A stretch of 64,000 nucleotides of DNA, from the NCBI GenBank assembly GCA_964106645.2, contig OZ067044.1. One strand, 5' to 3'. This document shows, in pieces, positions 15,061 through 45,354 of this stretch. How positions within the stretch are numbered: the stretch's first letter is position 1; the number at the start of each line of letters is the position of its first letter. Made by a program: the position numbers and the translations under genes. Under the pieces are notes generated by a model. The model ran no database searches, was not told the DNA's origin, and saw nothing but the letters and a program-made list of their open reading frames with translations. This DNA is from Podarcis pityusensis (Eukaryota).

Positions 15061-15143
15061 AGGCTGCAATCCTACACAAACTTACCTGGGAATAAATGAC
15101 ATTGGAAATTTACTCGTGAGTAACCATATATAGGATTGTACTG
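15061..15143. mobile_element. Short palindromic MITE-like element (same family as the insert in the pseudogene EC5)
   Basis: GGCTGCAATCCTACAC...TATAGGATTGTACTG imperfect hairpin flanked by TTA/TAA; aligns to 27538-27630. Confidence 0.65.
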
Positions 15144-25123: not shown

Positions 25124-25360
25124 AGCCAGTGTGGTGTAGTGGTTAAGAGCGGTGGACTCATAATCTGGTGAACCGCGTTCACATTCCCGCTCCTCCACAT
25201 GCAGCTGCTGGGTGACCTTGGGCTAGTCAGAAGTCTCTCAGCCCCACTAACCTCACAGAGTGTTTGTTGTGGGGGAGGAAGGGAAAGGAGAATGTTAGCC
25301 ACTTTGAGACTCCTTAGGGTTGTGATAAAGCGGGATATCAAATCCAAACTCCTCTTCTTC
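25124..25360 (+). mobile_element. tRNA-derived SINE with CTT tail (resembles squamate Squam3-type)
   Basis: A-box-like GTGGTGTAGTGG head, CTT tail, short TSD TCATAG; highly similar to the reverse complement of 27919-28166. Confidence 0.85.
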
Positions 25361-27537
25361 ATAGTGGGAAAGAATCCATTTTTATATTGTGTTGCATTGC
25401 TTTCAAATGGCTAGTGGAGTGCAAGTAGATTCAGGTTTGGTGGTCAGTCTCGGCTTCAGGTTTTGGAGGGCCCTTGGGAAGAACCTTGCTCAATAAGCCA
25501 TAATCACCAGGTGCTACTGCTTTCCCCCAAGCTGGAAAGGACAGGATATCCTTCTGGTCATTGCCTGGTCTGACCTGACCTAAGGTACAACCACCTACTA
25601 ACTAAACCCAGCTCACTAATATATGGAAACTTCTGTTTTCAATTCTGGTGCCTCAACTGTGGTCCAGCAGAGTTTTTGTAATGACAGTAGAAAAGACGTG
25701 TTCCAAAAGTGGGGAAGGCAAGAAGAAATGCCAGCAGAGAACTGAAACCAAGGATTGATCTGTTGTAGCCAGAGTTGTTGAATGTTAAGGAAAGTTACTT
25801 TGTTTGCAGCAGCAAATATTTCAGTTGTCTGCTCTATATATCTAAAACCATCTTTCACCAGAGATTTCAAGACAATTTAGAAAAATTAGAGCAAGTAGAA
25901 CAATAATAAATACACTCAGCTCTTGCCTCCTCCAGCCGTGTTCAATGATCAGAGGGAGAGGTGAGCAGTGGCAGCTGCACATTTTCCTCCCTCCTATCTC
26001 TGCTCATTGACTCAGAGACAGCATCCGAACAAGCAAGGAGAAGCACCTGGAATCGGAGACCTCAGGGATTGCTCGTAGGCCCCTTGCTGTGGCCCAATAA
26101 TGCCAGTTCCCAATGCCAGCTTGACTTCGGATAGTTTAAGCAGCTACTTGCCAAGAGCAATGAACCTCTCCCTGGTGATATAGATAAATCCAACCCAGTA
26201 ACGAACCCAAACGACATCTATTAAGGAAACACTTTAATTGGACCTCTTGTCTGCAAGTGTTTGTTCCTTTATGCCCATTTCTTTCCCATTACTTGCCACT
26301 AAAAAATTCAGCCATGGTCCCTAGACAGCAAAGAAAGTGCAAAGAAAGCGGGGGCGGGGGGGGCGGGGAGGCAAATGCCACTCACTTTCTGAATTTATGA
26401 AGTGCAAAAATCAACTAATGTTTGGTGGGGTATTACTCAAAATACATGGCTAAACGCTTGTAAAATAAATATAAATCCACTCTGCACAATTCTTAGCTCG
26501 GTGCCCAATGAGCTCTGCAGACTGTATCACATTCAACTTGTTTCTGCTTTGTACATTGTAAAATGTGAGCAATCTTAATTTTAGAAAATGAAACTCACCT
26601 GCTCAGAGTTTTGTCGTACTGTATCAGTGCTTGGATCTCCCATAGTTAATAAAGGACCTAGATTATCAGCAGCTGGATGAGATGAGAGAATATCTGTACA
26701 ACTTCCAATTGGAAAAACAATTTTATTGTTTTGGGAGCAGGTAGTTAGTGAGCCATCAGGACAGTAAGACTGAAGAAAAGCCCGGACACCATCAATGCCA
26801 ACAAACTGTGAAACAGGTACTCCATTGAAATTTCCAAATCCTGAGTCACACAATTGTGAGTTTCTCCACCTATAAAGTCTAAAAGCTAGTAACAAAAGCA
26901 GAAAGGTGAAGAACAAGCAGGAGACAGCAGCTACTGCAGTCACCAGGTACGAAGTGAGCTCACCATCAGATTGTGGGTCTTCAGATGCTGAGATGCTGCT
27001 CAGGTCTGAGAGGATTGCAGGGATGGTGTCAGCCAGAACCACAGTCAGAGTGGCTGAAGCAGAGAGAGGTGGCTGCCCATTGTCCTTGACTAAAACCACC
27101 AGGCTTTGCTTGAGGGCATCTTTCTCCAGAAAGAAGCGGGCCGTCCTGATCTCTCCCGTGTGGAGCCCCAGAGTGAAGAGCCCTGGCTCGGTGGCCTTGA
27201 TCAGCTGGTAGGAGAGCCAGGCATTCTGGCCAGAGTCCGCATCCACGGCCACCACCTTAGTGACCAAGTAGCCTGACTCTGAGGAGCGAGGGGCCAGCTC
27301 TATCCCCGTGGAGCCGTCGGTGGGAGGGGAGGGGTACAGGATTTGGGGAGCATTGTCATTCTGGTCCAGGATGAAGAGAGTCACTGAGACGTTAGAGCTG
27401 AGTGATGGAGAGCCTCCATCCTGGGCCTTGACCAGGAACTTAATCTCCCTGATCTCTTCATAGTCAAAGGAGTGTAGGGCATAGATTGCTCCAGTTTCAG
27501 AGTTAATTGAGAGGTAGGTAGGAAGGAAGGTATTTTT

Positions 27538-27630
27538 GACTTTAGTCTCATGCTCACTTATCTGAGGGTAAGTCACATTGAGCTCATTGGAATTTACTTC
27601 TGAGTAGACTTTCTTAGCACTGGGCTGCAC
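27538..27630. mobile_element. 93-bp palindromic MITE-like element inserted in frame in EC5
   Basis: 31 extra residues relative to all paralogs; DNA aligns with the free intergenic copy at 15061-15143. Confidence 0.75.
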
Positions 27631-27918
27631 AATATCTCTTTCGATGATAGAGTAAATTATTCTGCCATTTTCCTCACAATCAGAGTCATGTGCCTTCAAA
27701 ATAGTAATGAATTCACTTCTGTGGTTATTTTCCTCAAGATAAAAAGTGAATGCTGTATTTTTAAAGGTGGGTGGGTTGTCATTTTCATCTAATATTTCTA
27801 GTGGGAAGTAAGCAGTTGTTGAGAGAGAAGGTATCCCGTGGTCACTTGCTATTATTGTGATGTTATATTCTGAGACCCTCTCCCTGTCAAGGACACTTGC
27901 AATCTCCAAGTTGTAATA

Positions 27919-28166
27919 GAAGAAGAAGAAGAAGAGTTTGGATTTGATATCCCGCCTTTCACTCCCCTTCAGGAGTCTCAAAGCGGCTAACATTCTCCTT
28001 TCCCTTCCTCCCCCACAACAAACACTCTGTGAGGTGAGTGGGGCTGAGAGACTTCAGAGAAGTGTGACGAGCCCAAGGTCACCCAGCAGCTGCATGTGGA
28101 GGAGCGGAGACGCGAACCCGGTTCCCCAGATTACGAGTCTACCGCTCTTAACCACTACACCACACA
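27919..28166 (-). mobile_element. Young tRNA-derived SINE with (CTT)n tail inserted in a coding exon
   Basis: GTGTGGTGTAGTGGTTAAGAGCGG head, retained CpGs, clean (CTT)5 tail; sits between the AAC and TAT codons with at most 1-2 nt duplication. Confidence 0.92.
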
Positions 28167-29530
28167 GTTGTCAAATGCTTTCTTCAACAGAAACGGAAGT
28201 CCTGCTGGTATAGAACATGAGACCTCTCCATTTTCCCCATCATCTCTGTCATTTATATTTATAAGACCTATTACAGTTCCTGGAGGAGAACTTTCTTCAA
28301 CCTTGCTGAAAAGTGGTGTAATTGCTATCTCTGGTGGATTGTCATTCGCATCCATGACTCTTATGACTACTCTAGCGCGAGTAGACAAGCCAGCCCCATC
28401 TTGTGCTTGGACTTCCATTTCATGTGCTATAGATTCTTCAAAGTCAATATTCCCAATGACTGATATCTGCCCTGTTGCGGAATCCAAGTGGAATATTTTG
28501 GAAGCTTTGTCTGAAATTTTTCTGAATGAATACATTACCTTTGAGTTTATTCCCTCATCAAGGTCAGTTGCATTCAGAATTAACACGTGCGACCCTTTAA
28601 GCATGTTTTCCATAACGTCCGCTTCATACAGAGACTTACTGAAAATAGGAGCATTGTCATTTACATCTGCAACAGCAACACGGATTTCCACCGTACCAGA
28701 CCTGGCAGGTTCTCCTTTGTCAGCAGCAGTGAGAATTAGTTGGTGTACTTTTTGTTCTTCTCGATCTAACAGCTTTTCAAGGACTAGTTCTGCGTATTTG
28801 ATCCCATCAACTCCAGTTTGTACATCCAAGGAAAAGTGTCTGTTGCTACTGAGATGGTAGCTCTGGAGAGAATTCGTCCCTAGATCTGGATCCTGAGCCC
28901 CTGGTAAAAGAAACCTTGCCCCAAGACCTGAGTTTTCAGCAATTGTTAATTCAAACTCCTCTACAGGGAAGCTGGGTGAGTTGTCATTAATATCAGTTAT
29001 TTCAACTTTAGCCATAAAAAACTTCACTTTATCCTTCACAAGAATCTCAAAATTTAACAGACATTTTTCTACCTGGTGGCAAATCTGCTCCCTGTCAATT
29101 ACTTCCTTGATAAACAAATGTCCATTTCTCAAATCAAGTGAAAAATATTGCTTCATACCTCTGGAAATTATCCTGGTGTCTCCACTTGATAACTCCTTTA
29201 TGCTCAGTCCAAGATCCTTTGCAATATCTCCTACAAAAGAACCTTTCTCCATTTCCTCAGGAATCAAATAATGTATTTGCCCAGAAGCTACCTCCCAGAC
29301 CATCGCCAGCACAAAGCAAAGCACACTATTCTTTTGATAGCATAGAATCCTTCCAGCCATTTCCAGGTAGACTGTCAGATTGTTGTGCCCTTATTGTCCA
29401 GTTTGGACCTTACAAAGGTTCCAAAGGCTCCCTAGATATTTCCTCCTGCAAATCCAGACTTGCTGAACGCGGATGTGAGCTTTGTGTATTTGCAGAATGA
29501 GAGCAGAACAGGGATTTGTAGTTCTTGGCT

Positions 29531-29575
29531 TATGAGCAAACAGCGACACTTAGAGGTTCAATGAATAATTACACC
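29531..29575 (-). promoter_or_regulatory. CSE / CTCF site of the SINE-disrupted gamma exon
   Basis: Minus strand TGTAATTATTCATTGAACCTCTAAGTGTCGCTGTTTGCTCAT, ~180 bp upstream of ATG 29360. Confidence 0.82.
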
Positions 29576-38530: not shown

Positions 38531-38701
38531 TATCGTATTGTTTTATTGCTATGGCCGATGGCTGACGCAAATGAAGATTCATTCATTCATTCATTGTGTG
38601 AGTGAACCTCATTCCACACAAGCATACCTCACTTAGCACTTTGTTGAATCCCATCCTTAAAAATTAAATATTAGAAAACAAATTCCCAACAGTGTTCTCA
38701 C

Positions 38702-44525: not shown

Positions 44526-45354
44526 ACATGTAGAAGCTTAAATCAATTACAGAAAAATAGCATTAATTCATAAATTAATCTGGTTAAAAAGTAGGTGTAA
44601 TCTAGAAACTTCCTTTATATCTTAATACCTAAATTATTAAATTTTCCTTTTCATATCAGGTTATTGAATGTGGTCAGCTTCTTCATTAAACAGATATAAA
44701 TTATATATGTTCTTTGATATCAAGTATGCAGTGATGTTAACCAATTAAATTTTAGATATTGACAGTTTGGAAGAACTGAAACACTTTTTTAAAAATTCTG
44801 AATTCCTGGCACAGTTCTAGGATTGAGAGAGGTGTTACTGCACTTTCCTGGTAAACAAGGCAAGAGTTTTTAAAGTTTAAGAGAATATTGTAAGCATTCA
44901 GAAAAGGTGGGATCATAAGACTGATGTACAGGAGAGAAATGGAGAAATCATTGGGTTCTAGGTCACTTGGTCCTACGTATTTGGATATTGGTCCTACCCA
45001 CTTCGGCCTTGGAGGCTTGGCCAGAGAAGAATGTGGTCCTTGACAGGAAGATCCCCAACCCCCTGTTCTACAGAGAAGTAAAAAAAAAAAAACAAACCAA
45101 TGCCCTGAAAAATAAAAATAACAGAAGATCAAAGAAAGGTTCAAGGAACTAAAATGGCTCCAAGTGAAGAGAGTAGGTGGGTTAAAAAAGAAAGGCAAGA
45201 ACAAATATTATTAAATGGCTATAAAAGAGGCATTTCAAAATTTACAAACTGCAACATAAAGAATTAACCAAAATAGGATGATGTGAAGAAACAGATAAGA
45301 AAAGTGACTTATGATGTAATATGCTTTCTCCAACTATAATTACTAATCGCTCAC

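Follow-up and report, generated by a model that had tools for sequence, protein, structure and literature searches.

A variable exon of the protocadherin-gamma type in the lizard Podarcis pityusensis carries, within its fifth cadherin domain (EC5), a stretch of 31 codons that neighbouring exons lack. Where did this peptide come from, how long has the gene lived with it, and does the receptor make any use of it? We addressed these questions starting from a 64,000-nucleotide stretch of genomic DNA (the window) and a first-pass annotation that had read the insert as an old palindromic transposon retained in a functional gene.

An insert in EC5 of a protocadherin-gamma exon

The window falls within a protocadherin cluster encoded on the minus strand; its exons are gamma-like below position 29,400 and beta-like from about 38,600 on. 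The insert and its host exon comprise the following features:

26599..29360, minus strand: protocadherin-gamma variable exon with signal peptide, EC1-EC6, transmembrane helix and variable tail; interrupted by a SINE
29531..29557, minus strand: CGCT-core element, 185 bp upstream of the start codon
27538..27627, minus strand: palindromic MITE copy, 90 bp, contributing 30 in-frame codons to the EC5 C-D loop
27628..27630, minus strand: presumed upstream copy of the target duplication, 3 bp, diverged (GTG, Val)
27535..27537, minus strand: presumed downstream copy of the target duplication (AAA, Lys; Arg in other lacertids)

The host has the attributes of a clustered protocadherin-gamma variable exon: six EC domains, a transmembrane helix, a 3′ donor (GT at 26598) and an upstream conserved element, with the coding region in a single exon. 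Similar CGCT-type elements lie ~205 bp upstream of two neighbouring exons, and the core resembles the conserved promoter element of clustered protocadherins. Across EC1-EC4, the exon is 99% identical to Podarcis raffonei (370 columns). A tree places it among squamate ‘gamma-A12-like’ sequences and, judged by sequence, it is the orthologue of that gene. Elsewhere in the window (38657-64000), beta-like exons of two types alternate (those at 38657, 48330 and 58036 versus those at 45343, 55123 and 63449) and have near-identical 3′ halves, a pattern that tandem duplication of a two-gene unit, or gene conversion, would produce.

The spacing between the motifs IIE/IID/ITE and Y/C-LSINSETG is 41 residues in the target exon and 10 in the window paralogues, the same counts as in the first-pass annotation. 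The extra DNA comprises 93 bp at 27538-27630, and its minus-strand translation yields the 31 stop-free, frame-preserving codons described there. The insertion point is position 8 within the 15-residue EC5 loop. Against the consensus of its repeat family, the insert aligns without gaps and with 25-26 mismatches in 90 positions. The 93 bp therefore hold as the total inserted, but the element proper is 90 bp long (27538-27627), the remaining 3 bp being a presumed target duplication. We presume a 3-bp duplication because the difference between filled and empty sites, 31 codons, equals 90 + 3 bp; the triplets now flanking the insert (GTG vs AAA) differ, and the duplication is no longer recognisable there. 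The proposal that ATT|AAA was the original empty site is doubtful, since Arg follows the insert in the three other lacertids and Gly is found at the gecko empty site. The imperfect hairpin reported for the insert is a clear property of the family, whose consensus is self-complementary at 58 of 90 positions, but is weak in the exon copy (38 of 90), where the only palindrome found is a central one of 17 nt at 76% and the terminal inverted repeats have decayed.

The insert belongs to an abundant MITE family

The window holds a second copy of the element outside any gene:

15062..15143, minus strand: free intergenic copy of the same MITE, 82 bp, with an internal deletion; TTA at both flanks in this orientation

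The likeness between this copy and the insert, noted at first pass, was confirmed by a single family profile that matches the insert (E 3e-11) as well as the free copy (E 4e-13). Searching the lizard’s own genome with the insert returned the site itself once and at least 35 further places, and a search by end pattern found 60 copies with both ends exact, against 0 for a control pattern. Thirty full copies were fetched, with lengths of 88-92 bp, a range fixed by the search pattern; 17 of the 30 were exactly 90 bp long, and these gave the consensus and made up the family profile. In 40 arbitrary 10-kb stretches, the profile identified 21 distinct places (29 matches, both strands) in 400 kb, with 0 for the reversed control. 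This corresponds to ~52 copies per Mb or, by extrapolation, roughly 80,000 per genome. The transposon reading had been said to stand or fall with a multi-copy family, and the further places, the exact-ended copies and the extrapolated total all reveal one.

At the termini of the consensus, 10 contiguous bases pair, and identical ends were recovered from 43 copies gathered irrespective of their ends (21 from the arbitrary stretches and 22 from the flanks of other loci). Five of the six frames of the consensus contain stops, and there is no transposase coding capacity. Given its size, ends and copy number, the family is a MITE. T-N-A is present at 18 of 29 right flanks and 12 of 29 left flanks of the free copies, which are old, and identical 3-bp flanks were seen in 4 of 30 copies (left-right agreement, permutation p 0.07). 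A 3-bp duplication on insertion is likely, and on the strength of the T-N-A-like flanks the family probably belongs to the PIF/Harbinger superfamily. It may correspond to Chompy, a name for PIF/Harbinger-type (Tourist-like) MITEs of reptiles; these are likewise ~90 bp long and palindromic, with terminal inverted repeats, T-N-A-like 3-bp flanks and tens of thousands of copies. Two copies ~224 kb apart were identical over the bases shown and shared the same flanks, probably through segmental duplication.

Distribution and age of the insertion

EC5 loops were collected by two protein searches (best 120 of 5,854 and best 120 of 7,944 matches listed), plus cluster look-ups. Counted from the C-strand Tyr, the loop is 15 residues long in 243 of 276 matched loops of 240 proteins, and all 8 loops of 38-46 residues in this set come from the orthologue group of the target exon. 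The loop measures 46 residues (+31 aa) in Podarcis raffonei, Zootoca vivipara, Lacerta agilis and the GenBank model of Varanus komodoensis, 44 in Hemicordylus capensis (+29), 42 in Elgaria multicarinata (+27) and 38 in Pogona vitticeps (+23). Absence from close relatives, or presence in pseudogenes alone, had been raised as possible objections to the first-pass reading: three other lacertids carry the +31 aa, and full-length stop-free models carry the insert, so not all orthologues are pseudogenes. The plain 15-residue loop is found in geckos (Euleptes, Gekko kuhli, Gekko japonicus, Heteronotia, Eublepharis and Sphaerodactylus) and in the turtle outgroup. In Tiliqua scincoides, the loop has 17 residues, only 2 extra and 29 short of the filled state. 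A turtle paralogue, from Macrochelys (second unit), has 23 residues in the same EC5 loop instead of 15, and these 8 extra residues suggest that the loop can accept insertions independently.

Compared with the translated family consensus, the loops of Lacerta, Podarcis, Zootoca, Varanus, Elgaria and Hemicordylus outscored 3000 of 3000 shuffles, and that of Pogona gave a p of about 0.007-0.01; the Tiliqua loop and the three gecko loops tested did no better than chance. Lineages also have differences from the consensus in common, such as the Lys at codon 27 of Varanus, Elgaria, Pogona and Hemicordylus. The domains flanking the insert are 70-90% identical across families and keep their calcium-linker motifs, with alignment over the whole exon for Hemicordylus, Elgaria, Pogona and Tiliqua. 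In Varanus, where the model with +31 aa is truncated, both models diverge from the exon within EC6, and the gene may therefore be disrupted or poorly assembled. Searched against proteins on its own, the insert region gave only two lacertid clusters out of 12 candidates, the word filter being too strict for diverged inserts. Two Podarcis muralis models and one Varanus model were rejected as empty sites, as they are chimeric and switch to a neighbouring gene before EC5. The chimeric P. muralis models could reflect a lesion like the SINE in the present genome.

A tree was computed from EC1-EC4 units, leaving the insert outside the aligned region, for 50 reptile proteins chosen from 247 together with 5 window frames; 58 units passed the BLAST filter and were kept. 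All insert-bearing rows, the window exon and six gecko species formed one clade of 18 rows (100/100). Within it, the geckos (7 rows, 100/97, all empty) were sister to the remaining 11 rows, a non-gecko clade whose support of 93/86 is just below the tool’s strong threshold. Three turtle rows with the plain loop fell outside the 18-row clade (96/90).

At the level of protein sequence, these data show a homologous insert common to five non-gecko families, four of them with full-length models, and absent in geckos and turtles. Because filled non-gecko families stand against empty geckos and turtles, the simplest history is likely a single insertion after the gecko split and before scincoids parted from the rest. 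The squamate splits concerned lie at about 170-190 My. No snake or pleurodont iguanian orthologue was present among the best 120 matches listed per search, and the gene may have been lost there. A published account (PMC11303007) has the major squamate clades split before 125 My, and the insert is thus likely more than 125 My old, much older than the first-pass annotation had supposed. A clock date based on divergence was dropped, as a rate of 0.0008 per site per My taken from the literature would make the family older than squamates and is evidently too slow here.

A young SINE interrupts this allele

The exon in the window carries a second, younger insertion upstream of the MITE:

27918..28165, minus strand: SINE, 248 bp, (CTT)n tail, Squam3B-like, in EC4; breaks the reading frame

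Its boundaries were taken from a relative’s contig that skips exactly 248 bp. The SINE has no target duplication and is 8 bp short at the 5′ end; a second Squam3B-like copy at 25129-25360 is 89% identical to it. Squam3B is described in PMC7983390 as about 238 nt long with a (CTT)n tail, rarely with a target duplication, and young in lacertids. By length, tail and lack of duplication the SINE fits a Squam3B-like element, a match to the published description and not to a sequence. With the SINE skipped, the exon reads through 843 codons with no stop, which bears out the first-pass statement that the exon has no other lesion. Over 838 positions, it differs from P. raffonei XP_053253330.1 at 18; 11 of these differences are private to the window, and three (N558K, P570S and P613S) fall at EC5-EC6 positions identical in other lacertids. 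The SINE junctions were present in one DNA run of the best-matching organism and absent in one relative, but since that run possibly derives from the source sample it lends the SINE no independent support. The allele in the window probably became a pseudogene recently, and this lineage can likely do without the gene.

Predicted structure of the loop

In the AlphaFold model of the Lacerta orthologue (30-row alignment), residues 497-526, between strands C and D, have pLDDT values <50, and the flanking EC5 blocks have values of 84-92. The insert is thus predicted to be a disordered loop with EC5 folded around it, disorder being a prediction only because a thin alignment also lowers loop confidence. 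Modelling had been suggested at first pass as a check for a surface loop, and it returned a low-confidence loop on a folded domain. The best structural match of the model was gammaA4. Like mouse gammaA4 (5SZQ), gammaB4 (6E6B) and gammaB7 (5V5X), the lizard protein has six cadherin domains, a transmembrane helix and a variable tail in one exon that is spliced to constant exons; it differs from the clustered protocadherin-gamma structures in its long EC5 C-D loop, seen in none of the five top structure alignments shown.

In mouse gammaB4, E497 is needed for ordered cis assembly and its mutation disrupts the in-situ zigzag assembly, according to a tomography study (PMC11830823). We placed E497 at loop position 10 through an alignment with 6E6B, using an offset of 30 that was checked at four other residue groups; chain positions 466-468 of 6E6B, which were not displayed, were placed by this offset. 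Isoforms of the gammaA type prefer the EC6 side in cis dimers (PMC8901172).

Tolerated passenger or functional loop

We think that the insert is probably a tolerated passenger, a flexible surface loop that the protein does not need. This is the most likely reading because the insert has diverged like the free copies and has been trimmed in frame in some lineages. Divergence from the unselected consensus is 0.28 for the exon copy, compared with a free-copy median of 0.30, and the peptides of the five families match the consensus at 9-14 residues, compared with a median of 13/30 in free copies. Among four lacertids, variation affects 7 of 30 insert columns, compared with 39 of 637 in the remaining ectodomain (p 0.003). 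The first-pass claim of long retention in a functional gene is upheld in so far as the insert reaches back to the ancestor of cordylids, anguimorphs, agamids and lacertids; it does not extend to a selected function, given that the peptide drifts about as fast as the free copies.

The reading frame has fared differently from the residues. Only 7 of the 43 free copies are without an indel, and 4 of those are also stop-free. The loop has been shortened in frame by 2, 4 and 8 residues, so that the deletions in the five families are whole codons only (0, 0, 2, 4, 8). A point against the passenger reading is that three lineages keep almost the full insert length after >125 My. An open frame in five families, with deletions of whole codons only, points to selection on the frame, though protein databases show only intact models, so that broken orthologues are invisible and the conservation of frame is partly ascertainment.

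A passenger of this kind could have arisen as follows. A transposase, probably of PIF/Harbinger type, would have placed the MITE with a 3-bp duplication. The resulting 93 bp would preserve the frame, with the frame used being the sole open one of six. The peptide is predicted to protrude as a loop from between strands C and D, at a distance from the EC1-4 surface used in recognition, with EC5 staying folded, and tolerance may be helped by the fact that gammaA-type isoforms make little use of EC5 in cis dimers. Later selection would have purged stops and frameshifts, and spared amino-acid changes and in-frame deletions. The insert has likely been translated as an extra loop ever since insertion. 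In this genome, the young SINE breaks the exon, with a presumed loss of function of the allele.

It is possible, if unlikely, that the insert has instead been co-opted, with a possible role in cis assembly. The insertion point, at loop position 8, is two residues from the equivalent of gammaB4 E497, and a potential glycosylation site has persisted: an N-x-T sequon at codons 17-19 is kept in four of the five insert-bearing families (in lacertids, Varanus, Elgaria and Hemicordylus), compared with 3 of 43 free copies. The sequon reported at first pass is therefore present, but its NVT form is private to this genome (Val), other lacertids having N-G-T. The element may have brought the Thr with it when it landed, and Pogona is without the sequon, having lost it by the deletion of 8 residues. 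A further argument for co-option comes from the differences between the exon copy and the consensus, of which 2 are silent and 23 replacement, whereas 25% are silent in free copies (p 0.033, post hoc). A silent share as low as this is seen in 1 of 43 free copies. This excess of replacements in the lacertid copy hints at directional change; three of the replacements occur only in this allele, which may be dead. Tyr-Ser is kept in all five families, but we rejected its conservation as a sign of constraint, as 15 of 43 free copies have Tyr-Ser and two shared residues of 30 are near expectation. Co-option also sits poorly with the 2 extra residues of Tiliqua, if that model is right, with the SINE-broken allele of this genome, and with the lack of snake or pleurodont orthologues among the matches listed.

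Does the peptide reach the protein?

Tolerance and co-option both concern a translated loop, and we consider it very unlikely that the element is mostly spliced out as a small transposon-made intron, with little of it reaching protein. Such splicing has been annotated once. For Varanus komodoensis, RefSeq XP_044278784.1 drops 28 insert codons as an intron and GenBank KAF7235478.1 keeps them; XP_044278784.1 fuses two genes, typical of homology-driven prediction, and its intron therefore reads as a prediction artefact. The Tiliqua model, 29 residues below the filled state, would also fit removal as an intron, as would two GTAAGT donor motifs in the coding orientation of the family consensus. Both motifs are altered in the exon copy, although 21 of 43 free copies are also without both, and in Elgaria the deletion has taken out the codons of the second. 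Loss of the donor motifs as selection against mis-splicing was dropped as not significant, given those 21 free copies.

Four sequencing runs were compared, two of them RNA-type by guess, one a true single-cell RNA run and one a DNA run. Contigs of two lacertid relatives, from the runs guessed to be RNA, cross the insert, and one of them also skips exactly the 248-bp SINE. In the true single-cell RNA run, ~1 read covers the insert, with that relative’s alleles. None of the 13 joints listed in the four runs skips the insert, at a low RNA depth and with unspliced RNA or DNA possible among the reads. An insert that is stop-free and in frame in five families is also more than would be required of an intron.

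Least credible is that several independent insertions struck one codon, or that the gene is long dead and the insert a pseudogene relic: although the MITE family is very abundant (21 copies in 400 kb), the non-lacertid orthologues are known from protein models and not genomic DNA, and the window allele is broken, the five families agree in site, orientation and frame with shared departures from the consensus, the flanking domains retain their 70-90% identity and calcium-linker motifs, and the Podarcis raffonei, Zootoca, Elgaria and Pogona models join constant exons.

Discussion

The insert is real, old and spread across lizard families, a capture of a transposable element into a protein with filled, trimmed and empty alleles. 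Its closest working analogy is with the Rickettsia palindromic elements (RPE) that are fused in frame into active enzymes; an RPE-bearing guanylate kinase is reported to stay active with changed affinity (PMC2229807). RPE and bacterial MITEs resemble the lizard case in that a short, palindromic, non-autonomous element lies in frame inside a conserved gene and is apparently tolerated. The lizard case differs in that the host is a vertebrate neuronal adhesion gene and the insertion a single, datable one common to families, and in being known from sequence and prediction.

In vertebrates, coding sequence derived from transposable elements is mostly described as exonization (Alu, MIR and LINE exons; PMC7786948). 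There too, transposon sequence reaches coding mRNA and can add a disordered segment. Exonization, however, creates a new and often alternative exon from intronic sequence via splice sites, whereas the lizard MITE lies inside an existing large exon and a folded domain and needed no new splice site; it is contained within a continuous exon of 843 codons. A full-text literature search, covering few subscription journals and no supplements, found no report of this insert, which a supplement or repeat annotation could list, and keyword matches in the anole protocadherin cluster paper (PMC2764143) held no mention of it.

If the loop is merely tolerated, it would be a well-dated curiosity and not a new mechanism. 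A bolder proposal, which we regard as speculative and doubtful, is that the MITE was domesticated in place >125 My ago as a glycosylated loop that sets the isoform’s side in the asymmetric cis dimer. This would give non-gecko lizards a self-recognition receptor with its own lattice geometry, and the insertion would also be a clean presence/absence marker for squamates above geckos.

In most of the vertebrate cases considered here, transposon-derived protein comes from exonization or from a tamed transposase; in this lizard receptor for neuronal self-recognition, a complete non-coding MITE is embedded in a folded domain. As a practical matter, gene predictors mis-model such inserts. The insertion is a rare genomic marker for a deep squamate node. 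The filled, trimmed and empty versions in lizards constitute a natural series for how a random 30-residue peptide is tolerated, trimmed and used over >125 My, and the same series also lets the role of the EC5 C-D loop in protocadherin cis assembly be probed.
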